64,000 bases of DNA. Origin: Mizuhopecten yessoensis. Its lineage: Eukaryota. The position numbers and the translations under genes are program-made. Positions 31,408 through 63,683 of the stretch are shown here, in pieces. Location: the NCBI RefSeq assembly GCF_002113885.1, contig NW_018408916.1, forward strand, positions 912,957-976,956. The letters run 5' to 3'. Every line of letters starts with the position of its first letter. Positions within the stretch are counted from its first letter, which is position 1. The notes under the pieces were generated by a model, which saw only the letters and a list, made by a program, of their open reading frames with translations, was not told where the DNA came from and ran no database searches.

Positions 31408-33393
31408 ATGGCAGAAGGTGGTCCCCATGCAGACCCTCACTCTGAAGACGGCACACTACGAAACATCTCGGACTCCCAACTTCTCGAATGTCCAATCTGT
31501 CTTGAGCAGTTACGACAGCCGAAGTCTCTGCCGTGTCGTCATTCTCTTTGTGAGGAATGTTTGAGTAGCTACATCGTCAGTGAGGTGTTAGGGACGAGTG
31601 ATACGGCGACTTCCTTTATCTGTCCGGTATGTAGAACGTTAACTCACCCCGTGGACAAAACAGAGGACAAAGAGAAATGGGCCCGGCAGTTTCCGACCGA
31701 CACCGTTGCCATAGAGATGATACAACTGAGAAACAGGGCGACAGAGCCACGTTACTGCGCGCCCTGTCAGAGAAAGGGAAAGATGACCTCTGCACAATTC
31801 TGGTGTAAAATGAATCAGTCATTGTTCTGTGAGTCTTGTAAAGTGAATCACCATGATGTGGTCCATGTGAGCTGTGATATCGTAGATATAAGAGGTTCCG
31901 GGAATTTCCTGTTGAGACGGGAAACATCTGATAAAAGATGCGACAAACACAAGGATGAGATTGCTTATTATTGTGAGGATCACAAGTCATTGGGTTGCAG
32001 TAAATGTATCATTATTGGTCACAGGGAATGTGACAACGTTTCAACAACAGAGGGTTACTGTGAGAAACTTAATAGTAGCTCCCAACTAGAGGAAAGAAAG
32101 ACATTTCTACAGAAAGGAGCAGACGACATGGAATCCATGATAAAGGACTTTTATCTACGACAACAGAATATTGCAGACGACAAAGATGCGGTACTGAAAA
32201 GCATCGACGACCTGCAGGAACGTATGGAGAAGCGTATCAGAGAGATGAAGAAGGAAATCACAGATGACGTAATCACGGCGTACAAACAGGAAAGAGAAAA
32301 TCTGAAGGTGTCCACACAGAAGTGTGAACGACTGAAGGTCGCTATACAGAATACATTAGAATCGTCCGCTACAGCTCTACAGAGGAACGACCATATGGAC
32401 ACGATCCGGCTTTACCAGAAAGGTCAGACGGAGCTCGAGGCTTGTAAAGATCTAGTGAAAGAAATGCAGATGTCGATTTCAACTGTCAGTATTAAACATG
32501 AAATCGATTTGGACGTGGCAGGTCTGAACTTTGGTAAAGTCGTTGTCAGGAAGCAACGAAGAGATTTACCAGGTGTCCCAACTGTCGTCAAACCCTTATT
32601 CAAATGTGAAGTAAAGGAAATAAGAAAGGTGAACATAAAATGTCCGTCTGATCAATCTGCTTGTAATTCTCGTGGTGTTGTTTACTTTCCTGACGGCGGA
32701 ATTGTAGTGGGAGATAACAACAATCAGAAGATCAAGTTAATAAACGATGAGGGGGATGTTGTGGACGAGTTAAACTTGGATGGACGTCCTTGGGATCTGT
32801 GTATGGTGGATAACACCACTGTGGCGGCCGCTATAGAGAGCCCTGGAGGTATACATGTAGTGACTGTCACACCCTCCAAACTTACACTGTCGTCTGTTAT
32901 AAACAAAAATAAACAGTATTACGGGATAACGTACAGAGATGGTGAGTTTATCGTGAGTACGGGATCCGAAGTCTGTAGCGTAAAGAAAGACGGGACGACC
33001 AAGGCGTTATATCGATATACTGGCGAAGTACTCATGTTGTCACATGATTCCAAGGACGGACAGCTCTTTGTCTCACATTTCAACTCCAGGACTGATAGTA
33101 CGGTGATTGGTAAGTTGTCTACTGACAACAAGTACACGGACGTGTTGAAGGTTGGTGTAGTTAAGAGTACGTATGGAGTGGACGTCGACATGGAAGGTAA
33201 CGTCTATGTCTGTGGTTTTTTCTCCAACAACGTGGTACAGATGTCCGGGGATGGGACTAACGTCCGGGAACTGTTAACGGCAGAGGACGGTATCATACGC
33301 CCACTAGCAATATCTGTTTGTGGTGATAAACTGGTGGTGACAAATTGCGCATCAGGACTGAGGAATTCCATCAAAGTCTTTCAACTCTTTTGA
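31408..33393 (+). CDS. TRIM-family E3 ligase (RING/B-box/coiled-coil/NHL-like propeller), copy 3
   Basis: Intact ORF from ACCATGG at 31408 (661 aa), same architecture as copy 1; acceptor just upstream. Confidence 0.93.
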   Translation: MAEGGPHADPHSEDGTLRNISDSQLLECPICLEQLRQPKSLPCRHSLCEECLSSYIVSEVLGTSDTATSFICPVCRTLTHPVDKTEDKEKWARQFPTDTVAIEMIQLRNRATEPRYCAPCQRKGKMTSAQFWCKMNQSLFCESCKVNHHDVVHVSCDIVDIRGSGNFLLRRETSDKRCDKHKDEIAYYCEDHKSLGCSKCIIIGHRECDNVSTTEGYCEKLNSSSQLEERKTFLQKGADDMESMIKDFYLRQQNIADDKDAVLKSIDDLQERMEKRIREMKKEITDDVITAYKQERENLKVSTQKCERLKVAIQNTLESSATALQRNDHMDTIRLYQKGQTELEACKDLVKEMQMSISTVSIKHEIDLDVAGLNFGKVVVRKQRRDLPGVPTVVKPLFKCEVKEIRKVNIKCPSDQSACNSRGVVYFPDGGIVVGDNNNQKIKLINDEGDVVDELNLDGRPWDLCMVDNTTVAAAIESPGGIHVVTVTPSKLTLSSVINKNKQYYGITYRDGEFIVSTGSEVCSVKKDGTTKALYRYTGEVLMLSHDSKDGQLFVSHFNSRTDSTVIGKLSTDNKYTDVLKVGVVKSTYGVDVDMEGNVYVCGFFSNNVVQMSGDGTNVRELLTAEDGIIRPLAISVCGDKLVVTNCASGLRNSIKVFQLF

Positions 33394-38815: not shown

Positions 38816-39717
38816 AAAAGTGCATAAGACATATTTGACGATAAGTCTAATTACATACTGTGGTCAAACGGCACTGTATAGGTTCCGGAAATAGCGATCG
38901 CTTAAACGAGGCAGATTATTGAAGATCACAGCATGCTTGTGATCATAGACATGTTTATGGTATACTATCATCATTACGAAGGTGGGTACAAATCAATTAG
39001 TGTATTATAGATCAACCTTGTTATAAACTTGAAATATCCCAGAAATGAAACTTAAAAGCACATTAAAATATAACGAATCAGTGAGTTTATCACGGCCCGA
39101 AGTCGACAATCTCACAGATTATGTCAATAATTAACTCACAGATCTCCTTTGACACATGGTTTATGTATTTTTTCATTATTCAATGATTTATAAATTCAAA
39201 ACACACATTAACGAAAATATTTGTGTTTTTAAACATAATATAAACAATGATTGTAAATAACACCTATGGACATGCTACTGTATGGATAATAGCGACCAGA
39301 CTGTAGGTTAATAGCGATTACGGCTTTATATTACTGTATGGTTTATTGGATTATTACATTTTGTCTGTTGGTGGGAAAAACACTTTCTCTCACACAGATG
39401 GATAATTTCGAGTTCAGTTACTGCCAAAAGAGCTTTACAGAGTTTAGTGAAATAATTGAACATTGTAATGCAAGACCACGGAACTTAGGAAGAACGGTTA
39501 AATAAACGAAGAATTTTCTTAAACGTTGTAGTATCCCCGCGGTTCAGAGTAATAGCGGGGATTATTTGTCTCGTGCGGCACTCGTTTGCTAGTTGGAGCA
39601 CGAGCGGCGAGTGCTGTCACGCGTCCACGGGACAGGTGAGCACGGGGCCTATAGTATAGGGTCATTTCTAGTCGCCTATTCGGGACGCGCGGTTCACATC
39701 AAACTTTGACTACGAGC

Positions 39718-42693
39718 ATGAATATGGAGGGGGAAGCTATCAACCCCGATATTAATGAGGCTATAGCAGAGAAGGTGAAAGATGCGGTTGCCAATACGCA
39801 GAACCAAGTCCTTTCCCATTTGGACCGGCTTATATCTAGCAAGCTAGACGCTTTTGAATTAAAAAATTCCAGTAATTCTGAGGCACAGATATCGAAACTA
39901 CAGCAAAATATCGCGAGTGTGGATTCACATAAATTCAGCAAGAAGAGTTGTGAGGACCAGTATAAGTTCAACACGAAGCTTAAAGCTAAATTCATGGAAG
40001 TTGGGCATGCTACGAAGTCGGGTCCAGGGGCAGTGGAGGCCATAGTTTCGGAGGGCGTGGACATGATAGACTATAGGCAAAAGTTGGTCAAGCTGGCCGA
40101 CACGTCGGAGGCAGGATGGAGGGCTGTCGACGAGTATATCGTTAATCCCATTGCGGAGGATTCTGAGGACGAAAAGAGGATGGACCGGGCCACTAATAGG
40201 GCCAACAGGAAAATGAAGGCGGTATCAAAGTCTAAATCAGCGAGGGGAGGTCGCAGATTTAATACCCCTTATCAACGATTCGGCGGACCTACGGCTACTA
40301 TTACTTCTAATACGACGGACAGCAGCAGGTCCGGGCCGGCATGGAGGGCACAGCGACCGGGTCTATGCTATAGTTGTGGTAAGCCTGGCCACTGGAGGTT
40401 GGAGTGTCCCGGGGTGTCCGGAGGGATGGCAGCCACGAACGGCAGTAAGATAAGTAAATTTTGCTATTTTAAGCATGTTCTCCCTGATGGTACGCCTTTG
40501 TGTAATTCAGATGAGGCACGAAAGGGCGACGTAAAGCATTCTGATGTTTTAAATGTTAATTTGTCTAGCATGAAAGGTAAGGTCAGCGAGTCGCCGATGG
40601 GTAGGTTGAGGCAGAGAGTGGATTTCTGGCGAGAGAAAGGTACATGCGATGCCGTATTATCCATTGTGTCGGACGGGTATAAGATCCCGTTTCGGGTAAT
40701 CCCGACTGGCGTTTATTTGCACAATAACAAGTCTGCACGAAACGATCCAGTTTTTGTTGGGTCTGAGATAGGAAAGTTGCTAGGGCTGGGTTTAGTTTCC
40801 GAAGTAGTGACACAGCCGTGCATCGTAAACCCACTTACTGTTGCTTACAACAGGGCAGGTAAGCCACGCCTTGTTTTGGATTGTCGGCATATCAATCCTC
40901 ATTTGCATAAATTCAAGTTTAAGTACGAGGATGCCAGGACGGCACGTGATTTGTTCACGGAAGGTGAGTTTTTGTTTACATTCGACCTCAAGTCTGCTTA
41001 CCATCATGTGGAGATTTTTCCTAGTCATCGGACCTTTTTGGGTTTTAGTTGGGAAGATCAAGGTATAACAAGATATTACATTTTCAACGTGTTGCCTTTC
41101 GGCATAGCCACAGCAGGGTACGTATTTACAAAAGTATTACGTGAGGTAGTCAAACACGTGCGCTCAGAAGGGCACAAGCTGATCATGTATTTGGACGACG
41201 GTATCGGTGGTCATGAGAATCAAGGCGGGGCCAATGAGGCCAGCAGGTATGTACAGCGAGTGTTGTTTGGATACGGTTTTTTGATAGCCGATGACAAGTG
41301 TCAATGGCAAGCTTCGCAGTGCGTTACGTGGCTGGGGTACACGTGGTCGATGGCAGAAGGCGTGGTTAGGGTGACCGAGGTACGGTTGGAAGGACTACTC
41401 GGGCTATTACGTCATACAATGAGCCTTGTCAATCAGCGAGGTCAGATGTGGTTCACTGCACGATACGTGGCTAGTATCATAGGTAAGATTATATCGATGC
41501 AAAGTGTAGTTGGCAGTCTGGCCAGACTACGTACACGTGAGTTGTACGCATGTGTGATGTTGAGAGCAGGTGGGAATGCTCGGGTGTTACTCACACATAG
41601 TGCTTTGGCTGAAATAAAGCACTGGTTGTTGAATATGCATGATTTAAATGCCAAGGGTTCCAGGTTGAAGGACACCCGGGTGTGTACAAACTTAGTTTGC
41701 ACAGACGCGTCTGGCGTTGGGTATGGCGGGTTTGTGACCCAATGCGCATGTTTACATAACGAGGCGTGTGAGTTTGTGAATGACATGCAGGTCATCGAGT
41801 CTCTGTGTGACGCATCAGGTACACAGGTACCTGTGGCGGTTCCATTGGAGGAATCGGTAGGATCAGGCGCTGATGGCTTTACCTCCATGGGGGGTAGTAC
41901 GGTGAGTATTCCGAGTGTAGCGGAATCGGGGGGTATGTCGCATGTAATAGGTGCATAGAGTGATGTCGAAAGGTCATTCAGTTCTACATGGAGAGAACTA
42001 GAGGCAGCAAAACGGGTGTTATACAGTGTGGCCGACGAGATGAGAGGTAAGAACATCAAACTGGTGATGGATAATAAAATTGCATGCTCTATAGTGAATA
42101 TAGGGAGCAGAAAGGCCGCGCTGCAGGGCATTGCATGCGAGTTGTATTGTTTCTGTTCCGACAATGGGGTAAGTTTGAGTACGCAGTGGATACCTAGGTC
42201 AGCTAACGGTACCGCTGATCACCTGAGCAGGTGTATGGATTGTGACGATTGGTGCATTCAATACTGGGTTGTTGTATTGTGTGAGAAAGCATGGGGTGTG
42301 CATGAGGTTGAGTTCGCCTCGGGATACAACGCTAAATGTAAGCGTTTTAATTCTAGATGGTGGTGTGAAGGCACGGAGGCTATAGATGCTTTTACAGTTT
42401 CGTGGGAGGGGGTAAATAATTGGTTAGTGCCGCCTCCAAGCTTAGTGTGCGAGACCATTTAAAAAATGAAGGTGGAAAGATCACACGACACTTTGATTGT
42501 TCCAGAATGGAAATCGGCATCTTTTTGGCCGATTATATGTATAACTGGGAATACGTTTGTTAGCTTTGTCAGTGATTATCGTGTACTGGGTAGCCAACAC
42601 GTTACTTCCATGGGTAGAGGAAATAACGGCTGTTTTGGGAAGCCGCTGTTGGCTTTTAACATGCTGGCACTGTGTGTCGATTTCAGAGTATAA
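39718..42693 (+). pseudogene. DIRS-like gag-RT-RNaseH-methyltransferase, one reading frame with two stops
   Basis: Zn knuckle CYSCGKPGHWRLEC; RT FDLKSAYHH, LPFG, YLDD; RNaseH TDAS, SSTWRELEA, WIPRSAN..AD; MT-like FAS..N..C.RFNS..DAF..PPP. Stops at 41956 and 42460. Confidence 0.88.
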
Positions 42694-45563: not shown

Positions 45564-47136
45564 GCAGAAAACACGAATTGCCGATTGAATTAGATCTTTT
45601 GTGTTTTGAAACTGGAAGTGTACACGTGAAAGTTAGTCTGCAACACTTGTGACCTAGGGCTAGGCTTCTCCCACACGCCTGAACCTGGCCAACATTTAGC
45701 ACGATGACAAGCCAAAGAAACGGGAAAGAAGTGACTGAACTAATCGTCTATTACTTCAGATAGCACATTATAACATCCATATATTTTAAATCACTACATA
45801 CTACATGTCACAAATTTTAACGCAGACACCGTGTCTGTCATCTTCCTTAGGAAATGTAAACAATCTACCGGATGCGTGCGCACCAGAAATCGGAGAAATC
45901 CCTGGCGCCTCGATATTTAAGTCGATTTGATTAATTACTGATATCTAAAGTGTCGAATATTGTTTGAATAATTAACGAGATAGTCTTCTAGTTGCAGAAG
46001 GTATATAAGTTGTATATGTTTCGGGAATAAAAGAAGTAATATTTTACATTCTTGTGTAGCAAGTGATATTTCCGCGCGAAACAGAAATAGAATACAGAAT
46101 TATGACGTCAATCGGAATTCCTGTTTTTCTCCCTTTTCATTGGCTAGAAGTCACGTCCTGTTTCCCCACTGGAGGACTACTTCCGGACGAAAAAAACTCA
46201 AGGACAAGGTGTAGAAAGGGGAAACAACTCTGTTTAGGCACGCATGTCTTACCATTAAAGAGTTTTTTGTTACAAATGGCGGATTGGGTCAAGAATTCCA
46301 AATATTTAAACTTGTTTGATTTTAAGAATCAATGGCACTCAAGGTCAACAAGTAATTAAGGATAAGGTTATAAACAGGTCAAACTGTATAATTGTCACTG
46401 CCACTATTGTGAAATATATATGAAGTCCTTTTCATTAGAAGAATTATTCTATAAAAAATCACACGTTGCGATGAATTTTCAGAATTCAAGTTGTTTGAAA
46501 GTATTTTAAAAAATATGTAGAAATGTAAACGGATAGTGACTCACTTCACATTTAGCAGTTTGAAGATATGGAATGATCAACACGAGGACACCAGTGATAT
46601 ATATTTCGGTAATATCTCGTTTGTTTGCCTGTCGACAAATGTCTCCCGCTCTGTAAGGTAACTTGATTCATTAAGGTGCTTTCTTCTAAAAAATATCGGT
46701 TTATACATCGGGAAATCATTTTGGTAATGTTTAAAAGGTGGTTCCTATCTATATATTTGTTCACACTTCTTCGTTATGAGGCCAAGCCATTCAATATAAC
46801 TACTTTAAATACTATTGCCTGATTGTGTCCACTCCACAACTGCACTTTTGCTTTTGTCGTATATAACCTCAGACTTCAAAAAGGAAATATGATATGATCA
46901 GTTTCCTAAAATCCTTTTTAAAGGTCCTGATATGATCCGACTTTTATATGTTGGTAATAATACACAACACATATATACATTTAATTATCATGCGTTGATT
47001 GTCAAATAAATTATGAGTATTTAAATAATAATAAAATGCTGGACATGTGTCAGATTTCCAATGAGAATTCCAAACAAATTGTTTGAGATAGGACCCCGAG
47101 CGCTGGCGCTTAGTGTCTCAATTTTGTGTTCACAGT

Positions 47137-48303
47137 TGTTGTGAAACTGGGATTTGTTGACATTCGTTATAATAATAGTAATTCTTTATATAGCTTGCTA
47201 AAATCGTATTTATCATTACTAGTGTATCTCTATGTCAATGTGATATCAACAATACCTTTATAATCGTTAAGAGAGTCAGTTTTTTTGTTTTCAAAATGTC
47301 GGACGTCAAACTTTCCCGCAATCTATTGACAGTTTATGTCGTTGTATACGTGACGTAACTTCCGGGTTATTTCGTCAGCTATTAATAGTATCATACGTTA
47401 AAGATAACGGACTCTTTGTAATTCGTACTGAATTTGTCCATAAGAAAGAAATACATATGTAATTGTAAAATTATACTTCAAGAATGTTCTGTTGTTTTGC
47501 GTTACCATTGTGGCACGCGCTATTCGATATAAAAGCGGATTGCGGTCTGTTTTGAAGGAGTCGAGCTGGTAGAGATCCTGAGTGTACCAAGCGAGGTAAC
47601 TCTTGTGAAAGGTAGGGCATTTTTATAGGAACTTAAATTATACTCTATCTAGTTTAATGGAGTATTTATATATTTCCAATTCATATTTATAACCTTCGGT
47701 GAACCGTGAAGTCGGGCTCGGAGGAAAATAAGTTACAAATACTAATTTAAGGGGTATTTGAATACATTTCGATAACTTGTGTGAGCCACGTAATGCGGAG
47801 TCACAAGAAAGTAATTGTGTTTAAGGTTTAGATAACTCTATATGTTATAACCTGTGTTGAACCGTGAAGTCGGTCTCACGGGAAACTAAAGAAACTTGTA
47901 AGGCATAGATAAATCTATCAATCATAACCTGTGGTGAGTCGTGAATTCGAACTCACAGGAAAACAATGTACATGTAAGGCTTATTTTAACTAACCGTTAA
48001 GCTCCCCGAGCGTATATTTCTTGATTGATAAGTAATTCCTAGTGTTTATGATAGCTATATTGTTCAAGTAGGATTTTTCATGATAGCATAGTACGACTCG
48101 ACTCATATGCTTTGGTGACGGGATTATGTAAATGTATTTTGTATACGAATATGTAAATTGTATGTAATGGAATTCTGTATACTGATATGTATATGGTAGT
48201 AACTGAATAAACACCATCCTCGTACTTGATATCAACGTATCGAACTCTTAATTTCTGGTACCGAATAACGGCTTTCCATACAAGAAGGCACAATTTTATT
48301 ACA
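47137..48303 (+). repeat. 5' LTR (1167 bp)
   Basis: Near-identical to 55302-56467; TATAAAA at 47528-47534, AATAAA at 48206-48211. Confidence 0.97.
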
Positions 48304-48304
48304 C

Positions 48305-48316
48305 TGGTGGCAGCGG
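48305..48316 (+). other. Primer binding site, complementary to tRNA-Leu 3' end
   Basis: TGGTGGCAGCGG is the reverse complement of CCGCTGCCA-CCA; lies 1 nt after the LTR. Confidence 0.85.
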
Positions 48317-48493
48317 AAACTTTTCTTTTTTCCTGAATATTTGGCCTGTACATTTTGGATTTTTCAAAAGATAGTGACAGGAGAACAATTGAACTCGGGA
48401 GTAATTTGAATATTTGGTAACGTCTATATTTTTATTGTTTTGGTGAAATTTTTGAGGTACCAGAGTTTTAATAGTAATAGATTTTAGTAAAGG

Positions 48494-50302
48494 ATGGATT
48501 TAAGGAGTAGAAAATTGACTTCGCCGAATTTTGTAAGGGGGGAAATTGTGGGCAGTGAACATATCGATTCTCAAAATAGCCGTGTTGGGTCGCCAATGCC
48601 AAGCGTCATGGGAGTGAACATTCCACAATGTCAATTGGATAAATCACTGGATAGGAGCAGACCAACACCAAGTTTTGGAGAAGACAACAGTTATAGTCCA
48701 CAGGATGTCGATAAAGCAAATCAGGATTCTATGACCTTAGGCGATAACCTTGGAAACCAAGCAGGTCAACCTTCTTACAGACATACAGAGAACGATGTCT
48801 GTGATAGTGCAACCTTACCTCCTATGAGATATGGAGTCCAACAAGATTTATGTAGCAGTACAGTTCCAGTCCACACAACTCAGGGAGCTTCTACAAATCT
48901 GTTTCAAAACCCCCAAAGCACAACTATATCTCAGGAGTTCCGTAATGGAAACCGGGATAGTTCTTCCAATATGTATGACAATCGGGCGTCCCACGATTTA
49001 TATAGAGGAAACCAATGCGATGTCACTGTTGGACCATCTCATGAGTTCCGTAATGGAAACAGAGACATGTTCCGTAATGGAAATAATTCACAGTGTCCCT
49101 CCGCAAACTACTCAGAGTTCCGTAATGGAAACTGGGGAGATGTCGCTGTTGCGGAATCCCATGAATTCCGTAATGGAAACAGGGATAAGTTCCGTGATGG
49201 AAATACCTCACAGTGCCAACAAAACGATTTCTCAGAGTTCCGTAATGGAAACAATGGAAATCATCGCAGACAGCAGAACTATGGAGCGGAAGTGGAGTTC
49301 CGGCGCAGAAACAACGACCAAATTTCTACGGAACCCTACCACAACGCAAGATCTGGTTACAATCAGAATTGTATGCCGTATTCGGGATCACTTTCTTACT
49401 CATCAAGTCGGACGGGTAGAGAACCTGAGACTAGATTACCTACATTCAACGGACGTGGAGACTGGCAAGCGTTCATAACAACTTTCAACATGATTGCTGG
49501 TAGATTTTGCTGGAACGAGGCGAGACGGTGTGAGGAGATATTGTTTTGTCTGAGAGAGGACACCTTATCCTTTGCGACTAGACTGCCAATTCAGAGCAGA
49601 CTGGACTACTATCAGTTATGTACAGACATGCAACGGCGGTTTGGGGATATCTCATTACCAGAGACATACAGACGGAAGTTGACAAACGTTAAGAAATCAA
49701 GTGAAGAATCCATGCAAACCTTTTCTTCTAGAGTGGAACAAATGGTTCGAAAGGCCTATCCGGGCATCAACCACATACTCTACAATAACCTATGTGTGGA
49801 GCATATGTTAAATGGTATCCAAGACCAGAGTATAGCATACGATGTCCTGACTAAAAGACCACAGACAGTGGAAGAAGCTATTAATCTCCTAACATGGCAT
49901 TATACTTGCAAGAACAGTGTGAAGCAAGTTAAGAACAACGTGCGAGAGGTCACGGTAATAGAGAAAGACCATGATGATCCGGAAGTACGGCGAACCAGTC
50001 AAGGACGTTACGTGACTGAAGAACGGTTACAACAGTTTGGCAGGGATATGGTGAAAGACCTTAAGGAGAGCATTTCGAAGGAAATCAAGGAAGCAATAAG
50101 TAACCTAGACAGGTCAAAATCAAATGGCTACAAGAAGGGTAATTTTGCCCGGAATCACCAAGATGTGGAATGCTACCAATGCCATAAGAAAGGTCACTAT
50201 CGAAGTGAATGTCCAGAGCTAAATGAAGGCAACAAAGGACACAGAGCGAACAATACGACGCAGACAGAACTTAAAAATGGAGTGACAAAGAATTTAAACT
50301 AG
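48494..50302 (+). CDS. gag: Gypsy Gag with N-terminal EFRNGN repeats and CCHC knuckle
   Basis: 602-aa ORF; capsid-like LPTFNG..W..F; CYQCHKKGHYRSEC. Confidence 0.92.
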   Translation: MDLRSRKLTSPNFVRGEIVGSEHIDSQNSRVGSPMPSVMGVNIPQCQLDKSLDRSRPTPSFGEDNSYSPQDVDKANQDSMTLGDNLGNQAGQPSYRHTENDVCDSATLPPMRYGVQQDLCSSTVPVHTTQGASTNLFQNPQSTTISQEFRNGNRDSSSNMYDNRASHDLYRGNQCDVTVGPSHEFRNGNRDMFRNGNNSQCPSANYSEFRNGNWGDVAVAESHEFRNGNRDKFRDGNTSQCQQNDFSEFRNGNNGNHRRQQNYGAEVEFRRRNNDQISTEPYHNARSGYNQNCMPYSGSLSYSSSRTGREPETRLPTFNGRGDWQAFITTFNMIAGRFCWNEARRCEEILFCLREDTLSFATRLPIQSRLDYYQLCTDMQRRFGDISLPETYRRKLTNVKKSSEESMQTFSSRVEQMVRKAYPGINHILYNNLCVEHMLNGIQDQSIAYDVLTKRPQTVEEAINLLTWHYTCKNSVKQVKNNVREVTVIEKDHDDPEVRRTSQGRYVTEERLQQFGRDMVKDLKESISKEIKEAISNLDRSKSNGYKKGNFARNHQDVECYQCHKKGHYRSECPELNEGNKGHRANNTTQTELKNGVTKNLN

Positions 50303-50335
50303 TTAGGACTGTGCCTGTCGGCCAAGACACAGTCC
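50293..50335 (+). promoter_or_regulatory. -1 programmed ribosomal frameshift signal
   Basis: T TTA AAC in the gag frame just before the stop, 6-nt spacer, stem GGACTGTG/CACAGTCC; pol is in the -1 frame. Confidence 0.88.
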
Positions 50336-53300
50336 GTATAGATATAACAGAAAAGACAGATAGATGCGAGGTCCATGTAGTTAAGGAGACTGACACATCA
50401 GTGGAATTAGAGTCTGATAACGGAGCGTATTTGAGGGAGCTGTTTGATGAGACTTCATGTGATACTGCTGGTCGGTGCCAGGCAGTAGAGATCGATGTTT
50501 GTCCAGCCAAAATGGAGCGATCGGAGGACGAGGACAATATGACAAAACCATTGAGGGAAGTAGTCATAGATAGGGTCCGGGCAGTCACGATTACGGCGTC
50601 CATGATGGTGGAAGGAAAAATTATCAGGGCGGTAGTGGACACAGGTGCTGAAGTCACTGTGATGAGCGAGAAGAAGTTTATGCAGTTTCCGGAAGATATG
50701 ACACCGTTGGTGAGAGATGCCGATGTAGGTTTAGCTGTAGCCGAGGCCGGCAAGAAACTAACGACATACGGCTTAGCTGATGTACAGATGACTTTGGGCG
50801 ACAAAGTATTTCCTTGGAGTATTTATATTGCTCCTATCAAAGACGACTTGTTGTTGGGTTGTGACGTCATCGATGCATTTGACATTACAGTTAACACCAA
50901 ACGTGGATTGGAGATTGATGGGAAATGGATGGAGTGTGAAGTGAGAAGGGCTCAGGACCAGATCGCAAGATTAGTAGTACAGGAGACAGTTCTTATACCT
51001 GCTATGTCTGAAGTCATAGTGGCGGGAGAGGCGCAAAATGCCGAAGTATTGGATACACGGTATTCTGCTGTGGAGCCTACAGTTGAAGACGAAAGAACTT
51101 TCATAGTTGCACGGACGTTGGTTGATCCATACAAGCACACAGTGCCGATCAGGATTGTAAACACCAGTAAAACGCCAGTCAAGTTAAGGAAAAGACACAT
51201 GATAGCCGCGTTACACCCTGTGGAGAGTTTTGAAGAAATATTTAAAGAAAATGGAGATACATGGGACAGATTTATCATGATGGAACAAGCTAAACAAAGA
51301 ACTAAAAATCTTCGTCAGGTGGAAGTTATTTTGGAGGACACAGCTACTCAGGCACCAATCATTCCAAAAGAGTGGAATACGGACACAGAGGGAAAGGCCG
51401 ATTCTCCAGTTGTACCGGAATTTCTCAGGGAATTGTTTGACAGAAGCTGTGAAAACGTCACAGATAAAAAACACAGAGATAGATTGGCAGACATTCTTAT
51501 CAGAAATCAGGACAGCTTTGCTAAAAACAAGTTGGAGCTAGGATCCTGCTCAGTTATTGAACACAAAATAGAGACAGGTACAGCTGCACCTGTTCGTCAA
51601 CCTTTGAGGAGGACACCTCGTGGTTTCGAGGTGGAGGAAGAAATATATCTAAAGGATCAAATAGACAACGGGACTATTCATGAATCCAAGTCAAGTTGGG
51701 CTTCAAATATTGTCTTAATCCGGAAAAAAGATGGCACGGTTTGCTGGTGCTGTGATTATCGCCGTTTGAATGATTGTACTATCAATGATGCATATCCACT
51801 ACCTCGCATCGATACTTGCTTGGATTGCCTATCGTCAGCATCTATATTTTCAACTATGGATCTTCAAAGCGGATACTGGCAACTAAAACTAGCTGAGGAG
51901 GATCGAGCGAAGACAGCATTTATCACAAAATATGGATTGTATGAGTACATAAAGATGCCTTTTGGTCTTTGCAACGCTCCTAGCACATTTCAAAGATGTA
52001 TGGAACTCATTTTCCGAGGAATGCAGTGGAAAACCATATTAATCTACTTGGATGACGTCATTCTATTCAGCTCAGATATGGAGGAACATTTGGAGAAACT
52101 GGAAGAAATTCTGAAACGCTTCAAGTCTGCAGGTTTAAATTTGAAACCATCAAAGTGCGAGTTTGTGAAAAAGGAAGTCCTATATCTCGGACACATCGTC
52201 GGAGCAGAGGGGATAAATGCTAACTCTAAGATAGTAGAAGCTGTAAGAAACTGGAAGCAGCCTACTACAGTCAAAGAAGTCCAACAGTTCATCGGGCTCT
52301 GCAATTATTACAGGCGCTTTATTGAGCACTTTAGTGAACTATCTGCACCTTTAACAGAGTTGACCAAAAAGGATGTAAAATTCATTTGGACTGAAGAATG
52401 CGAGAACACATTTCACCTTTTGAAAGAAAAAATGTGTCATTCACCAATTTTGGCTATACCAAACAACGAGGACCCAATAATCTTGGACAGATGCCTCAAA
52501 TATTGGAGTTGGAGCAGTGCTTTCACAAGTACAAAACGGAAGAGAGCGTCCAGTAGCTTACGCGTCTAAAAAGCTAGACCGTCATCAACAAAGATACAGT
52601 GTGACCCGGAGGGAGCTTTTGGCTGTCGTGACATTTATCACACAGTTTAAGCACTATCTCCTGGGAAGGCGATTCCTGTTGCGGACAGATCATGGATCAC
52701 TACGCTGGCTGTTTGGATTCAAAGATCCACAGGGACAAGTCGCCAGATGGTTGGAATGTCTTGGGGAATTCGATTTTGAAATACAGCATCGTGCAGGAAA
52801 ACGTCATCAGAACGCGGATGCCCTATCACGTTGTGATGTTGATGATTTGTGCACACATCAAAAGGAGGGAACCGTGGATAAGCAATGTATTACTTGTATC
52901 CAGCTGAAGCAGAATTGGAAGCAGTTCAAGGAAGACGTTGACAATGTGCAACCATTAGGAGGTCAAAACATTGAGAAAGATGTTCGAGCCGTTAAGACAA
53001 ACGTGGTCAAGGCAAAAGAAAGTAACTGGATGGACGGATATTCTTATAAGGAACTGTCAGTTTTCCAGGAAGAAGACGACGATTTGAAACATCTACATGA
53101 GTGGGTTAAGGTCGATAAGATACCCACAAGAGACAATGTGGCTAAACATAGCCCTGCTGTAAGGAAGTTATGGCTAAATTGGAATAACATTGTATGCCAA
53201 CATGGACTGTTGTATCAGCGTTGGAGAACGGCATCACCTGAAACAGAGAAACTGCAACTGTTAGTACCAAAAATACTTAAACCAGAGATTATGAAGCGTT

Positions 53301-54346
53301 GTCACAACTCTACGTATGCTGCTCATCCGGGTGTTCAACGTACAATGGAGAAACTACGGGAAATTTTTTATTGGTACAAGATGATCAATGATGTCAAGAC
53401 CCATGTGCATTTATGCGAAAACTGTAATCGATGGAAATCGACAGTACCAACATCCAAAGCTACGCCCAGTGACCACAGAGTGGGATATCCTTTGGATAGA
53501 GTTGGCATCGACGTGATCGGACCACTCCCTCGGACAAAGAATCAGAATCAATATATCCTAGTAATTGGAGATCATTTCACAAGATGGATGGAAGCGTATC
53601 CTCTTCCTAACCAATCAGCTGAAAAAGTCGCGGAGAAGTTGGTAAAAGAATTCATAGCCAGATTCGAGATTCCTTTAGAAATTCATTCGGACCAAGGTAC
53701 CAATTTTGAAAGTCAGATCTTTCAGGAAGTGTGCAAACTCCTTCAAATTACAAAGACCAGGACCACCCCCTATCATCCTGAATCAAACGGATTGATCGAA
53801 CGGTTTAATAAAACGTTGGGAACTATGATCAAGTGCTTCCTGAAAGAGAATCCTAAGGAATGGGACCGTCACTTGGAAATACTTATGGCAGCATATAGAA
53901 GTACAAAGCATTCTGCAACTGGATTCAGCCCCAACGTTATGATGTTTGGACGTGAAGTGAATACACCAATAAACATTTTGTTTCCGACAGAGGGATCAAC
54001 GGAATTCACATCTACCGAATACGTGGGAAGATTACGCGAGACCTTGGAGACCATGTACAACACGGCTAGAAATAAATTAGGGGAAAAAGCGAGTTACACA
54101 AAAAGAAACAGTGATACCCGTATTCATGATAAACCATACAATATAGGGGAATTTGTGTATAAATTAAAGCCGAAACATAGAAAACTGGAGTCACCATGGT
54201 CAGGACCGTACATCGTCACCAAAGTATTGAGTGATGTCGTTTACGAGATCACCCATAGTAAACATAAAGAGATTGTACATTTTAATAAATTAAAGACCTG
54301 TACAATGTTAGAAAGTCCAAAATGGGCCAAAACCTATATGCTATGA
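50293..54346 (+). pseudogene. pol: Gypsy Pol (protease, RT, RNase H, integrase) with one frameshift at ~52489
   Basis: VDTGAE; MPFGL, YLDD; RNaseH D[T]DAS broken by an apparent 2-bp deletion; integrase H..H..CxxC, D..D..E and WSGPY. Confidence 0.92.
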
Positions 54347-54369
54347 TCTTTTGTTTTTACAGGTTAACG

Positions 54370-55086
54370 ATGAGCTTTCAATGTAGTATTTGTGAAGGCA
54401 AATATAAAGGAAAGAAGAGTGCCATAGTACATTTCTTGTCACAGCACAAACCTATTGAGAGTGCCCCATTTAGTTGTACCCTTTGTGGGTATAGATCCCT
54501 AACCTCTGCTTCTTTGAAAGCTCACACCAAAGGATATCGACCACATTGGGAAAAAAGACAGATAACCAGTTTAAATGATCTGGATTGCTTTCAAAGAAGC
54601 CTAAGACCGTATTCAGTGACTTTTGGAGTCGGAAATGAAGATATGTGTTATATAAAGGAAGATCTGGAAGTGAGGAAGGAAGAAAGATTGACAGAGATTA
54701 AGGAAAATATGGAAGCGAAGAATGAAGAAAGAGCGACAGAGATCAAGGAAGATATGGAAGTGAGGAAGGAAGAAAGAGCGACAGAGACCAAGGAAGACCT
54801 GGATGGACTGTTACATGATGTCCTGGAATTGTGTGAGGACGAGACAGAGAGGTTCAAGAAGGAAAAGGAAGCGGAAGCGGAAGTGGACAGGATCCGGAAA
54901 GAGATAGTTTAGTGCGAAAAGAAAAGAGCGACAGAGAGTGCGAAGTTTGGAAAGTATGTAGAGAGATTAGAGAAGAAGTTAGATGAGTGTAGAGGGCGTA
55001 AGAGAGATTATGGAAGTTCATACGGTTTTGAGGAGATGTGGGAGGAATATGGGAATGAAAGTAAGAGACTTAAGAGTGTGGTGTGA
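54370..55086 (+). CDS. Extra ORF3 of the Gypsy element: two C2H2-type fingers plus charged coiled coil; in-frame TAG at 54910
   Basis: Acceptor ttttgtttttacAG at 54362; CSIC..H..H and CTLC..H..H; EERxTEIKEDMEVRK-like repeat x3; frame stays open ~57 codons beyond the TAG. Confidence 0.7.
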
Positions 55087-55288
55087 GTGGTAAAGAAATA
55101 AACATGTTGTCATATCTATTGTTAAAATTAAAGAGCTGGAAATGTAATTTAAATAATATTTGGCTGGATGTACATATCTTTGTAAAGAAAGATTTGATTT
55201 TGAATTCTACTGTGTAGATTCTTGAAATATTTCTCAAAGTGTTCTGTTTTAAAATTGTTCTTTCTACATTTTGGGGACAAAATGGTCT

Positions 55289-55301
55289 AAAAGGGGAAAA
55301 G
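55289..55301 (+). other. Polypurine tract
   Basis: AAAAGGGGAAAAG abutting the 3' LTR. Confidence 0.9.
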
Positions 55302-56467
55302 TGTTGTGAAACTGGGATTTGTTGACATTCGTTATAATAATAGTAATTCTTTATATAGCTTACTAAAATCGTATTTATCATTACTAGTGTATCTCTATGT
55401 CAATGTGATATCAACAATACCTTTATAATCGTTAAGAGAGTCAGTTTTTATGTTTTCAAAAAGTCGGACGTCAAACTTTCCCGCAATCTATTGACAGTTT
55501 ATGTCGTTGTATACGTGACGTAACTTCCGGGTTATTTCGTCAGCTATTAATAGTATCATACGTTAAAGATAACGGAGTCTTTGTAATTCGTACTGAATTT
55601 GTCCATAAGAAAGAAATACATATGTAATTGTAAAATTATACTTCAAGAATGTTCTGTTGTTTTGCGTTACCATTGTGGCACGCGCTATTCGATATAAAAG
55701 CGGATTGCGGTCTGTTTTGAAGGAGTCGAGCTGGTAGAGATCCTGAGTGTACCAAGCGAGGTAACTCTTGTGAAAGGTAGGGCATTTTTATAGGAACTTA
55801 AATTATACTCTATCTAGTTTAATGGAGTATTTATATATTTCCAATTCATATTTATAACCTTCGGTGAACCGTGAAGTCGGGCTCGGAGGAAAATAAGTTA
55901 CAAATACTAATTTAAGGGGTATTTGAATACATTTCGATAACTTGTGTGAGCCACGTAATGCGGAGTCACAAGAAAGTAATTGTGTTTAAGGTTTAGATAA
56001 CTCTATATGTTATAACCTGTGTTGAACCGTGAAGTCGGTCTCACGGGAAACTAAAGAAACTTGTAAGGCATAGATAAATCTATCAATCATAACCTGTGGT
56101 GAGTCGTGAATTCGAACTCACAGGAAAACAATGGACATGTAAGGCTTATTTTAACTAACCGTTAAGCTCCCCGAGCGTATATTTCTTGATTGATAAGTAA
56201 TTCCTAGTGTTTATGATAGCTATATTGTTCAAGTAGGATTTTTCATGATAGCATAGTACGACTCGACTCATATGCTTTGGTGACGGGATTATGTAAATGT
56301 ATTTTGTATACGAAGATGTAAATTGTATGTAATGGAATTCTGTATACTGATATGTATATGGTAGTAACTGAATAAACACCATCCTCGTACTTGATATCAA
56401 CTATCGAACTCTTAATTTCTGGTACCGAATAACGGCTTTCCATACAAGAAGGCACAATTTTATTACA
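55302..56467 (+). repeat. 3' LTR (1166 bp)
   Basis: About 6 substitutions and 1 indel versus the 5' LTR, counted by eye. Confidence 0.97.
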
Positions 56468-57299
56468 ACAGTCATATACAATACAAAGACATTACTCTAC
56501 ATGTAGCAATGCCCTTCATTGCTTTTATGTTGCAATCCTCGATTTTGACACGACATACAATATATTTTTGTAGAAAGTGCACATGCTATTAGTGCACTGA
56601 CATTGTCTTTTCGCGCCTCCTTCTGGGTATTCTGAATATATCAGTCTTCACGCATATCAACGTTCCCGTGCTTCTTTCCTTGATTTTTTTCTCTTGTGCC
56701 TGTCACTTGCTCTCGTCTGCATCAGTAGAACATGAGGTTTTCCCTCTTTAACAACTCGCTTCCTTTCAGACATTGTTCTATGCAACAACGCTACCATGGA
56801 TGAAACTTGACCAATTGTTCTGTCTTCGGTATACTGGCCGTTATCAACGTCTGGTTAGTCACGTAGTATACTGACTATGTATTGTTTATGTTTGGATCTT
56901 ATAGGTCCACATAAATGAACAAAGATTCCACTGTGTCATAACAGAAACTTTTTGTCTGGCCTATACTTACTTATCACGACGGATACAAGAAACTTCATTG
57001 AATAGATGTACATGCAGTTTCTTGAAATTTTGTTCTTCTTGTATATGATATATTAAGCGGTTTTCATTACGTCTGCTGGAACAAAATGTATTGTAAACAG
57101 TGTCTTACCGCATGAGTAAGCACACCACTGTGTACACTTTTGTCTGTGTGTACAAATGAGATAAATAGCATAACGTACGATGTATTTAAGTATAATGTCA
57201 CGACTACACGGGTACCTAGTGACATTGCCCGTACTAAGACAAAATAACGTTTAAATAGCAATACAGGATTTAAAAAGATCCATCTCAAACCCTTACAGA

Positions 57300-58138
57300 T
57301 GATGTTGACACAGAAAGATCATATAGCATTGACACAAAAAGATCATATAGCGTTGACACAGAAAGATCATATAGCGTTGACACAGAAAGATCATATAGCG
57401 TTGACACAGAAAGATCATATAGCGTTGACACAGAAAGATCATATAGCGTTGACACAGAAAGATCATATAGCGTTGACACAGAAAGATCATATAGCGTTGA
57501 CACAGAAAGATCATATAGCGTTGACACAGAAAGATCATATAGCGTTGACACAGAAAGATCATATAGCGTTGACACAGAAAGATCATATAGCGTTGACACA
57601 GAAAGATCATATAGCGTTGACACAAAAGGATCATATAGCGTTGACACAGAAAGATCATATAGCGTTGACACAGAAAGATCATATAGCGTTGACACAGAAA
57701 GATCTTGTAGCGTTGACACAGAAAGATCATATAGCGTTGACACAGAAAGATCATATAGCGTTGACACAGAAAGATCATATAGCGTTGACACAGAAAGATC
57801 ATATAGCGTTGACACAGAAAGATCATATAGCGTTGACACAGAAAGATCATATAGCGTTGACACAGAAAGATCATATAGCGTTGACACAGAAAGATCATAT
57901 AGCGTTGACACAGAAAGATCATATAGCGTTGACACAGAAAGATCATATAGCGTTGACACAGAAAGATCATATAGCGTTGACACAAAAGGATCATATAGCG
58001 TTGACACAGAAAGATCATATAGCGTTGACACAGAAAGATCATATAGCGTTGACACAGAAAGATCTTGTAGCGTTGACACAAAAAGATCATATAGCGTTGA
58101 CACAAAAAGATCATATAGCGTTGACACAAAAGGATCAT
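57300..58138 (+). repeat. 24-bp minisatellite GTTGACACAGAAAGATCATATAGC, ~35 copies
   Basis: Near-perfect tandem array; variant monomers recur at 360-bp spacing. Confidence 0.97.
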
Positions 58139-58569
58139 TAATTAATATTTTATTTCAATAGCTATTTTCACCTGCAACAAAGGGTTTACCAACCTTTACA
58201 CTACACATAATACCTAGTGTTATAATTGACCTTTAATAATCACATACCATGCAATATGATTGGCATAATTATCAATAAACAAATCATTGTAATGTCTTTG
58301 ATTGATTATCATTATGAACACACTAGTCTATTAACCCTCGAAAAATCCCTCCTTAATCCATTATGGCGGATTACAAAGATATAGAAGGTAAACAGTGGTC
58401 TATAGATACTGCGTCCTATACTACTTCTATAAATTTACCAAATAATTTGCCATTATTGATATAGGAGGAGTTATGTCGTAATAATATCTGTCGATACCAG
58501 CGGTATGTGTATGTATTGTAGGCCGCAGCTATAATTAAAATAGCAATGTTTGTAAAATTATAAACTTAT

Positions 58570-60653: not shown

Positions 60654-60757
60654 AACTTTTCTTTGTTAATGAGGTAATAAATCAAGTCGAGCACGCTGTA
60701 AATTAATATTTACCGCGTGCTCGACTTGGTTTATTACCTCATCAACAAAGAAAAGTT
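60654..60757. repeat. ~104-bp near-perfect palindrome
   Basis: Two ~50-bp inverted arms around a TAAT centre; the right arm recurs at ~62961-63010. Confidence 0.9.
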
Positions 60758-61088
60758 AAAAGATAATCCTCAAGTGCGTACAGTCCGGACATCATGCATG
60801 TCCATACAGTTAGAACATCATACATGTACCTACAGTCCGGACATCATACATGTACATACAGTTAGGACATCATACATGTACAAAAAGTCTGAACATCATA
60901 CATGTACACACAGTTACGACATCATACATGTACATACAGTTCGAACATCATACATGTACATACAGTTAGGCCATCATACATGTACAGACAATCCGAACAT
61001 TATACAGGTACATACAGTTAGGACATCCTACATGTACATACAGTCCTAAGATCATACATGTCCATACAGCCCGAACATCATACATATT

Positions 61089-61400
61089 GAATGACAAAAA
61101 CTGATAATTATTGTCCAACAAGTCCTTAACTGTCTTCACCCCATTCCGTTCATATTCCATATATTGTTTGTAACTAGGAACTGGTATGTAATTCAAAAGA
61201 TCATCACCAAGAAAACTTGATACTTCATTATTGTCATCTTTATATTCCATCCATGCTAAAATAACATCTTTCCAGAAAACATTAGTTACATTTTTCGATA
61301 TTTCCTCCAGTTTTGATTTTTTCAGATTCCATAATCTCTCCCCTCCAAATTTACTAAAATTAGATTTTGCTAAACTTTGCCAGTCCCCATTTCCATCATA
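61089..61400 (-). mobile_element. Tx1/L1-type ORF2 fragment (duplicated at 62737-62960)
   Basis: GDWQSL..FGGERLW..NVFWKDVILAW..GVKTVKDLLD. Confidence 0.7.
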
Positions 61401-61987
61401 TATCCGGATAACTTACGGTTTGTTTATTACAAGTGGCTTGTTTCGTTTAAGAAAATTTATTAAAAAAAAAAGAAAAAAAAAAAAAAAAAAAAAATAATGC
61501 CCAGACTTTTTGTACATATATGATGTCCTAACTGTTTGTACATGTATGACGTCCTAACTGTATGTACCTGTATAATGTTCGGACTGTATGTACAAGTATG
61601 GTGTCCTAACTGTATGCACATGTATGATGTTCGGATTGTATGTACATTTATGATGTCCTAACTGTATTTACATGTATGATGTCCTCACTGTATGTACATG
61701 TTTGATATTCGGACTGTATGTTTCTGTATGATGTTCGGACTTTATGTACATGTATAATGTTCTGATTGTATGTACATGTATCAGGTCGTACCTGTGTGTA
61801 CATGTATGATTGGACAATAATTATCAGTTTTTGTCATTCAATATGTATGATGTTCGGACTTTATGTACATGTATAATGTTCGGATTGTCTGTACATGTAT
61901 GATGCTCAGACTTTTTGTACATGTATGATGGCCTAACTGTATGTACATGGATGATGTCGTAACTGTGTGTACTTGTATGATGTCCAG

Positions 61988-62325
61988 ACAAAATTAGTAT
62001 ATGATATAATGCATGAATTAGAAGAAAAAAATATGTCTGGTTTGTTGCTACTTGTTGATTTTGAAAAAGCCTTTGACTCGATAGAATGGAGTTTTATTCA
62101 TAGGTCTTTAAAATCTTTCAATTTTGGTGAATCTTTGCTTAAATGGATACATATTTTCTATCATAATGCAAAAAGCAGAATAATTAATAATGGGTATTTT
62201 TCATCATTTTTGGACGTAAAACGTGGATGTAGACAAGGGGATCCCATCTCCCCATATCTATTCCTGATAGGTGTTGAAATGTTGGCTATACAATGGAAAA
62301 AAAATAAAAGTATCAAAGGTGTACA
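61988..62325 (+). mobile_element. Tx1/L1-type reverse transcriptase fragment
   Basis: LLLVDFEKAFDSIEW..RGCRQGDPISPYLF. Confidence 0.9.
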
Positions 62326-63683
62326 AACATACATGTACATACAATCAGAACATTATACATGTACATACAGTCCTAACGTCATACATGTCCATAGAGTCCG
62401 AACATCATACAGAAACATACAGTCCGAATATCAAACATGTACATACATGTACAACATACAGCCGAATATCATACAATTACATACAATCCGACCATCATAC
62501 ATGTACACACAGGTACGACATCATACATCTACATACAGTTCGAACATCCTACATGTACATACAGTCCTAACGTCATACATGTCCATACAGTCCGAACGTC
62601 ATACATGTACAAAAAGTCTGAAAATCATACATGTACACACAGGTACGACATCATACATGGACATACAGTTCGAACATCCTACATGTACATACAGTCCTAG
62701 CATCATACATGTCCATACAGCCCGAACATCATACATATTGAATGACAAAAACTGATAATTATTGTCCAACAAGTCCTTAACTGTCTTCACCCCATTCCGT
62801 TCATATTCCATATATTGTTTGTAACTAGGAACTGGTATGTAATTCAAAAGATCATCACCAAGAAAACTTGATACTTCATTATTGTCATCTTTATATTATT
62901 TCCATGCTAAAATAACATCTTTCCAGAAAACATTAGTTACATTTTTCGATATTTCCTCCATTACCGCGTGCTCGACTTGGTTTAATACCTCATCAACAAA
63001 GAAAAGTTACAAGATAATCCTCAAGTGCGTACAGTCCGGACATCATACATTATAAACACATCCCATACATACATACAACGACCAGAAAATAAACATCCTA
63101 CAACAACATATACAGTTAGGACATCATAAATGTACAAAAAGTCTGAGCATCATACATGTACACACAGGTACGACATCATACATGTACCTACAGTCCGGAC
63201 CTCATACATGTACATAAAGTCCGAACATCATATATGTGCGTACTGTCCGAACATCACACATGTACATACAGTCCTAAGATCATACATGTCCATACAGTCC
63301 GAACATCATACATGTACATACAATCCGAACATTATACATGTACATACAGTCCGAACATCATATATGTGCATACTGTCCGAACATCATACATGTACATACA
63401 GTTAGGACATCATACATGTACAAAAAGTCTGGATATCATACATGTACATACAGTTAGGACACCATACTTGTACATACAGTCCGAACATCATACAGAAACA
63501 TACAGTCCGAATATCAAACATGTACATACATGTACAACATACAGCCGAATATCATACAATTACATACAATCCGAACATCATACATGTACATTCAGTCCGA
63601 ACATCATACATGTACATACAATCCGAACATCATACATGTACATACAGTTAGGACATCATACATGTACAAAAAGTCTGGACATC

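Follow-up and report, generated by a model that had tools for sequence, protein, structure and literature searches.

A covarying hairpin array in the LTR of a Ty3/Gypsy retrotransposon, a candidate response element for unspliced RNA

Introduction

The window (the whole stretch of 64,000 nucleotides of DNA that was analysed) contains an LTR retrotransposon with four similar hairpins in each LTR, which raises the questions of whether these hairpins function as RNA and, if so, by what they are read. An accessory protein paired with an RNA response element is a hallmark of complex retroviruses, and one case from an LTR retrotransposon was found in print, that of CERV, which according to the main text of PMC10309623 is the product of a spliced mRNA of the C. 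elegans Gypsy/Ty3 element Cer1 and is needed for export of the unspliced RNA. Literature searches on Gypsy elements retrieved no paper that describes either a hairpin array or a zinc-finger accessory ORF expressed by splicing; Repbase, subscription journals and supplements were outside the search and therefore the ORF3 layout described below may be annotated there. In a survey of mollusc LTR elements the terms 'ORF', 'zinc' and 'PBS' are absent from the main text (PMC6238403).

Results

The retrotransposon and its layout

The element carrying the array is a young Ty3/Gypsy LTR retrotransposon (Table 1). Besides its pair of LTRs, which differ from each other at 7 positions, it has a primer-binding site, a polypurine tract, a 5-bp target duplication (ACAGT) flanking it on both sides, gag, and protease, RT, RNase H and integrase in the order typical of Gypsy. 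The primer-binding site is presumably of the tRNA-Leu type, and the two U3 motifs are taken by us to be CRE/ATF- and ETS-like. In the window's copy a frame change located at 52481-52569 disrupts pol and an in-frame stop at 54910-54912 interrupts ORF3. The host genome searched is that of an animal, AT-rich and 988 Mb in size, in which the array region has 17 matches. An internally deleted derivative with a near-identical LTR (L004) occurs both in this genome and in a separate, independent data set. A tRNA-derived LTR element of the Helenus type was excluded by the finding of 0 tRNA in 47000-56600 and by the gag-pol coding of the element; Helenus is described in the available text of PMC10886601 as non-autonomous with a tRNA-derived LTR, and Helenus and Ajax differ from the window's element.

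Table 1. Features of the element in the window (window positions) and positions of the second hairpin type in related loci (locus positions).
Feature	Position	Strand	Remarks
5' LTR, TG...CA, 1167 nt	47137..48303	+	Ty3/Gypsy element
Promoter motifs TGACGTAA and ACTTCCGG, U3	47351..47365	+	ACTTCCGG also in family B
TATA box TATAAAAG	47528..47535	+	kept in family B
Two candidate 5' splice donors	47593..47617	+	predicted: GAG/GTAACT (GT at 47596), AAG/GTAGGG (GT at 47612)
Hairpin 1	47693..47724	+	6-bp outer stem, 5x3 internal loop, 3-bp inner stem, loop UGAAGU
Hairpin 2	47776..47807	+	6-bp outer stem, 4x3 internal loop, 4-bp inner stem, one mismatch, loop GUAAU
Hairpin 3	47851..47882	+	loop UGAAGU
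Hairpin 4	47928..47959	+	loop UGAAUU
AATAAA, predicted poly(A) signal	48206..48211	+	97 nt from LTR end; similar distance in family B
Primer-binding site TGGTGGCAGCGG	48305..48316	+	
gag	48494..50302	+	weak Retrotrans_gag match, one CCHC knuckle
Seven small hairpins TTCC-GTRAT-GGAA, 5' part of gag	48938..49250	+	peptide repeat EFRNGN; GUAAU loop as in LTR hairpin 2
TTTAAAC slippery-type heptamer, gag end	50293-50299	+	gag/pol overlap (-1 frame)
pol: protease, RT, RNase H, integrase	50275..54346	+	Gypsy order
Predicted 3' splice acceptor TTTTGTTTTTACAG	54349..54362	+	11/12 pyrimidines; ATG 8 nt downstream
ORF3	54370..55086	+	two C2H2 fingers, acidic repeats, coiled-coil-like part
3' LTR with second array copy	55302..56467	+	polypurine tract 5' of it
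3' LTR hairpins	55858-55889, 55941-55972, 56016-56047, 56093-56124	+	identical copies, 8165 nt further on
CU-GNRYA-AG hairpins, L063	1950-2170		
CU-GNRYA-AG hairpins, L059	1940-2055		
CU-GNRYA-AG hairpins, L055	5140-5195	-	
CU-GNRYA-AG hairpin (single), L058	1307-1341		

Shape and stability of the hairpins

The sequence-only reading had placed four 32-nt hairpins in the LTR with spacings of 83, 75 and 77 nt, ATAA and AAA as frames, and outer stems CCTTCG/CGGAGG, CTTGTG/CACAAG, CCTGTG/CACGGG and CCTGTG/CACAGG, all of which was borne out. The claimed change of the inner stem from CCG/CGG to TCG/CGA did not hold for hairpin 2, whose pentaloop is GUAAU and whose inner stem has 4 bp; this stem contains an A-C mismatch in the window and is GTGG, fully paired, in L006, L010 and L011. 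The TAAGG said to follow each hairpin does so in the window, but in several copies hairpin 1 is followed by TAGGG. In sister family B the motif is not conserved, occurring once within 450 nt 3' of the donor, and a count over 13 LTRs showed no enrichment (53 against 44 expected, with 26 of 300 shuffles as high).

The array lies between the TATA box and AATAAA as claimed, and because of these two signals, at 47528 and 48206, it would fall within the R region. Hairpin 1 begins 165 nt 3' of the TATA box, which would be ~135 nt after the start of transcription. Taken singly, the hairpins fold with only modest stability (z -1.4 to -2.4), and the stability of the full 341 nt is not unusual (z -0.9). 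The pair probability of the outer stem in context is 0.12-0.20 for hairpin 2 and 0.45-0.91 for the other three, and in the window the hairpins pair with neither the donor nor AATAAA.

An Rfam scan of the window returned 4 chance-level matches at E 0.4-9, none of them on the array, and four related loci gave 0 matches at the gathering score. No covariance model of TAR, RRE, CTE, ribozymes, K-turn RNAs, SECIS or IRE matched the array, and comparison of the hairpins by eye with the ribozyme, K-turn, SECIS and IRE consensus also revealed no fit.

Covariation within the array

The changes between the stems had been described as compensatory or G-U tolerant and pointing to RNA structure, a view supported by covariation within the array, by family B and by the balance of G-U pairs to A-C mismatches. 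In the four hairpins of the window all 24 cells of the outer stems are paired, with 3 double changes in addition to G-U pairs. An ungapped MAFFT alignment of the four hairpins had 34 of 36 cells paired and 4 pairs changed on both sides; this pairing was equalled by 2 of 500 shuffles, while slid controls paired at 31-53%. When the 9 observed stem changes were placed randomly in a null simulation, all pairs were kept in 27 of 1,000,000 trials.

The signal was also present across families A (that of the window's element), B and C. A structure-blind MAFFT alignment of 9 hairpins, from which B2 was left out, had 74 of 87 cells paired (85%) with double changes in 10 cells; none of 500 shuffles, which ignore relatedness, was as good, and slid controls paired at 25-51%. 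With the arms of A1-4 and B1-4 assigned by hand, 75 of 78 cells were paired. On the + strand the hairpins of A and B have 6 G-U pairs versus 1 A-C mismatch, and therefore the + strand is favoured as the RNA. Older genomic copies decay without compensation, mostly at CpG, as is expected of dead insertions, and such copies give no covariation. These comparisons, all within one genome, support the array as an RNA-structure element under selection, and it is likely that the hairpins function as RNA.

The array in related families

Family B was found by searching with ORF3, of which it encodes a 35% relative, and its LTR is known in several solo copies. Identity with family A is 40-52% in gag, 35% in ORF3 and 404 of 898 aligned columns (about 45-50%) in the LTR. 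The family B LTR keeps the TATA box, the donor, four hairpins and an AATAAA near the end. Its array occupies the same place with further compensatory changes while the spacers are near saturation; the GUAAU type is again the second hairpin, AUAAC and GAAA flanks are found on 3 of the 4, and the outer stem of B2 is wholly different. The decayed family C contributed two more hairpins.

Searched over the window and 40 loci with default filters, the model R1 detected only the window's 8 hairpins and missed a decayed family B copy (L064), whereas the hairpins of families B and C were recovered with filters off. Sequences preselected for the flank pattern score up to 28 bits by chance and 9 of 80 loci reached E<=0.01, therefore the homology of family B rests on LTR context and not on the score alone. 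Genome-wide, a loose hairpin pattern was in no excess over the control (6160 versus 7228), and a tight pattern gave 57 matches versus 26, the excess being families A and B; 6 other tight matches that were inspected were single, unrelated or a tandem duplication. At least 120 single matches were obtained in viral contigs with no arrays among 80 inspected, and protein searches of the viral and prokaryote collections found no relatives.

The proposed co-occurrence of hairpins with ORF3 was mixed in outcome: arrays are present in 5 ORF3-bearing families, but none was detected in 5 others, and one hairpin is present in an ORF3-less family. The scan of the LTRs of the ORF3-bearing L035, L044, L046, L048 and L071, which did find the window's array, had no repeated hairpin array among the matches listed for these five, a result that counts against ORF3 as the reader.

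Splice sites and the predicted ORF3 message

The two donor-like sites are located 68 and 84 nt 3' of the TATA box and 80-100 nt 5' of hairpin 1, and a donor is found at a similar distance from the TATA box in other families. A strong predicted acceptor lies directly 5' of ORF3, 8 nt before its start. Of 34 regions picked by integrase similarity, several of them copies of one family, 20 have a zinc-finger ORF 3' of the integrase, and a pyrimidine-rich YAG precedes every one of these ORFs; this is a raw count with no chance control. The layout of donor, acceptor and zinc-finger ORF recurs widely in the Gypsy families of this genome.

Eleven families with a usable LTR were compared for start codon and phase, taking the nearest good acceptor and for L070 the second-ranked one. 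All 4 families in which ORF3 has no ATG after the acceptor have an ATG in the LTR exon, its phase matching ORF3 in 3 of them (L035, L046 and L070) and failing in L071, while 6 of the 7 families in which ORF3 has its own ATG have none in the LTR exon. These results constitute good sequence evidence for a predicted LTR-to-ORF3 splice. RNA reads on the 8.2 kb numbered 3, 9 and 8 from three runs, of each of which ~19% was read, and contained no splice joint, start or end. A contig joint 48315-53480 was rejected as splicing, as it matches the deleted genomic copy L004.

If the AATAAA at 48206 and its counterpart at 56371 in the 3' LTR are used, an array in R would also be present on the 3' end of the spliced RNA, which counts against ORF3 as the reader.

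A second clade with its own hairpin motif

In a second clade (L063/L051, L059 and L055/L042) tandem hairpins of the form CU-GNRYA-AG were found in 5, 2 and 2 copies versus ~0.1 expected, starting 10-15 nt 3' of the donor. Their pairing of 94% is partly by construction because they were picked by requiring four pairs, which does not apply to the copy number, the invariant C-G pair or the five different stems. Different hairpin motifs in one host point to a reader encoded by the element.

The ORF3-less L053/L057/L058 nests in the second clade in the tree and has a weak donor and a single hairpin that keeps the internal loop and one compensatory change. This family fits a loss of the intron together with ORF3; it is also a case of a hairpin retained where no ORF3 is present in cis, which counts against ORF3 as the reader. 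Two ORF3-less families have ten or more identical-scoring integrase copies each, indicating recent spread without ORF3.

ORF3-less families (L053, L057 and L058; L039 and L043; L052) are nested among ORF3-bearing ones, and the LTRs of L039 and L052 are only about 180 nt long.

The ORF3 protein

Domain matches of ORF3 are to C2H2 families only. Full-length homologues with the same fingers and C-terminal motifs were detected by HMMER in other data sets, the FEEMW and KRLKSVV motifs being common to unnamed homologues, of which P0014, P0016 and P0038 lie on contigs of 6-45 kb; two word-index protein searches gave no match and an Atlas search gave only generic C2H2 clusters. One metagenome contig contains integrase and the start of ORF3, again behind an acceptor, with no LTR on the contig. 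The fingers are classical C2H2, with DNA binders such as CTCF as the nearest solved relatives, a likeness that counts against ORF3 as a reader of the hairpins. The structural model is weak (pLDDT 60) and uninformative, and a fold search with it gave no match at E<=0.001. Neither the finger sequence nor this model distinguishes between binding of DNA and of RNA. Rev, Rex and Rec combine an arginine-rich motif for RNA binding with a leucine-rich export signal. Inspection of ORF3 by eye revealed no arginine-rich motif, and of its one Leu-rich stretch, LDGLLHDVLEL, homologues retain only part.

Several accessory ORFs have further features. xQT/TQT motifs, which we take to be LC8-binding-like, occur in the ORF3 of P0016, P0151, L060 and L063, with the conserved FEEMW and K-S-V-V tail in homologues. 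By eye, ORF3 of L045 (about 1700-2020) and L070 (about 980-1270) ends in a BTB/KCTD-like domain, and the 3' accessory ORF of L032, L033, L034, L040 and L062 runs on, judged from motifs, into TatD-like nuclease sequence; a literature search for TatD in gypsy LTR retrotransposons found no paper. ORF3 of L041 contains 75-nt coding repeats (1640-2290), each folding into a strong hairpin (about -23 kcal/mol). The integrases of L038 and L052 end in a PHD-like finger.

Hairpins in gag

The small hairpins in gag would be on unspliced RNA only. In the context of the window, 4 of the 7 have a pair probability of 0.74-0.90 and the other 3 of about 0. Family B has 11 in L295 (1453-1717, 9 of them fully paired) and 4 in L289 (1429-1561), with the same codons and G-U-tolerant changes; over families A and B together the form is TTCC-GTRAT-GGRA. 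The peptide repeat could be an alternative source of these hairpin repeats.

Discussion

The array is a real structured RNA element outside Rfam and a member of none of the TAR, RRE, RxRE or RcRE families. It likely marks the unspliced genomic transcript, and our best guess is that it works like a response element. From sequence and by analogy with Rex, Rec and CERV, we tentatively prefer the reading, to which we give somewhat less than an even chance, that the array is a response element with multiple sites on the unspliced genomic transcript, recognised by the ORF3 protein that the element itself encodes. A two-component system had been suggested from the sequence; the donor 5' of the array, the acceptor before ORF3, the complementarity of start codon and phase and the clade-specific motifs argue for it, but the mixed co-occurrence does not.

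We infer transcription, splicing, the R-region status of the array, binding of any kind and the controlled step, be it splicing or export. Transcription would start ~30 nt after the TATA box, and by default the donor at 47596 or 47612 would be spliced to the acceptor at 54362 to yield the ORF3 mRNA. The protein translated from it would then attach to the stem-loops that closely follow the donor and, on the unspliced RNA, to the GUAAU hairpins of gag. Bound ORF3 may hold off splicing or license export, switching the output to gag-pol and genome RNA in a manner analogous to Rec/RcRE, Rex/RxRE and CERV of Cer1.

HIV TAR, with which the array had been compared together with RxRE, is located at the extreme 5' end (+1) of the RNA, single or double. 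The array is like TAR in its bulged stem-loops with 6-nt loops and in its predicted location in R; unlike TAR it has four copies, the first of which would begin at about +135, 3' of the donor. Of the earlier comparison, the RxRE/RcRE half therefore fits better than the TAR half. RxRE is a structured LTR element, and Rec and Rex use arginine-rich motifs. The likeness to HERV-K Rec/RcRE and HTLV Rex/RxRE consists of a structured LTR element, an accessory protein from a message that is here predicted to be spliced, and an intron-containing genome RNA; unlike Rec and Rex, ORF3 has zinc fingers, and the array is without sequence or Rfam likeness to these systems. RcRE is described in the available text of PMC11379458 as one 433-nt region in the LTR overlapping U3, in contrast to the array here, made up of four separate 32-nt repeats located 3' of both the TATA box and the donor.

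Cer1 CERV is the closest known case: both elements belong to Gypsy and encode an accessory protein, made from a spliced mRNA in Cer1 and predicted to be so here. The two proteins are set apart by their descriptions: CERV (517 aa) carries H, M and G domains plus a cysteine loop of the C4 type, a proposed RNA-binding site, whereas ORF3 has 240-300 aa with two C2H2 fingers. The terms 'response element' and 'stem-loop' occur 0 times in the main text on Cer1 (PMC10309623), whereas here a candidate cis element is visible in the sequence.

A packaging or dimerisation signal, in which the hairpins of the LTR and the GUAAU hairpins of gag would form a multi-copy psi 3' of the donor read by the nucleocapsid of Gag, is an unlikely alternative for which several results nevertheless count. 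Retroviral psi is typically located downstream of the donor and into gag, and that of MLV has tandem hairpins with GACG loops; the repeated shared-loop hairpins here are similarly placed, the GUAAU loop being common to LTR hairpin 2 and 7 (family A) or up to 11 (family B) gag hairpins with codons unchanged. The hairpin retained without ORF3 agrees with a psi, and the clade-specific motifs are also compatible with a co-evolving Gag. The main array, however, precedes the primer-binding site and has a second copy at the 3' end, unlike retroviral psi, and a psi in R would also be present on spliced RNA. Moreover, across copies the loops lack self-complementarity, GAAUUC being confined to hairpin 4, the gag region of the second clade is without matching hairpins, and the gag repeats may reflect a peptide repeat that duplication has homogenised, 3 of the 7 not being predicted to form in context.

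It is doubtful that the array acts through host factors without a reader encoded by the element, either as a CTE-like export element or as a structure controlling access to the donor and the choice of 5' versus 3' poly(A) site. Such control would resemble that of foamy viruses, for which the abstract of PMC3694450 describes a major donor upstream of the poly(A) signal in the LTR, the layout also seen here, with U1 binding and RNA structure deciding the use of the poly(A) site; the abstract describes no repeated hairpin array and R would here be ~670 nt. The replacement of Rec/RcRE by CTEs (PMC11379458) and the hairpin retained without ORF3 are also consistent with a host factor. It would have to recognise unrelated motifs in two clades of one host, TA(A)GG, the motif considered for a host protein, shows no enrichment, and neither the absence of Rfam matches on the array nor the lack of pairing with the donor or AATAAA in the window agrees with this alternative.

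A role in transcription, either Tat/TAR-like recruitment on nascent RNA or inverted DNA half-sites for a dimeric ORF3 activator, is improbable. It would accord with the resemblance of the ORF3 fingers to DNA binders, with the promoter-proximal array and with the conserved acidic-aromatic FEEMW tail, which we take to resemble activation motifs. The two arms change together between copies (ACAGAU/GUCUGU versus CUUGUG/CACAAG), unlike a DNA site read by its sequence, and the 6 to 1 predominance of G-U over A-C and the distance of the first hairpin from the presumed start likewise argue against it. A neutral origin, in which a palindromic unit was duplicated in tandem and template switching preserved its symmetry, although in line with the uncompensated decay of old copies mostly at CpG, the weak folding z-scores and the frequency of tandem repeats in LTRs, is very improbable and already largely refuted by the null simulation, by the four hairpins kept in family B among nearly saturated spacers, and by the persistence of G-U pairs and asymmetric internal loops, which template-switch repair would presumably remove.

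The Gypsy group carrying the array looks like complex retroviruses in layout. Extending the ORF3-reader reading, one may speculate, on the unlikely side but as a serious conjecture, that a widespread invertebrate Gypsy group consists of 'complex' elements with a Rev-like switch, each with a spliced two-finger C2H2 protein and a family-specific hairpin array next to the donor, the protein and RNA halves co-evolving as orthogonal codes (loops UGAA(G/U)U and GUAAU versus CU-GNRYA-AG) that were lost together with the intron in streamlined families. If true, such elements would provide natural pairs of C2H2 fingers with RNA hairpins, both cognate and non-cognate. As both candidate halves are visible in many diverged families of one genome, how retrotransposons keep intron-containing RNA unspliced is directly testable. 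Even with Gag or a host factor as the reader, the array is a real and previously undescribed structured element.

Other features of the window and related LTRs

The LTR of the ORF3-bearing family L048 contains, at about 430-500 and 875-892, two CCAGCAAGA.TCCAGC repeats with a complementary stretch ~400 nt downstream, a possible long-range stem. Elsewhere in the window are three tandem TRIM-NHL-like reading frames with RING, B-box and NHL (7574-9628, 22152-23732 and 31390-33393), a second retroelement frame of higher GC content that has RT and a CCHC knuckle (39655-42462), and tandem satellites of 24 nt (57250-58160) and 26 nt (60700-63650).
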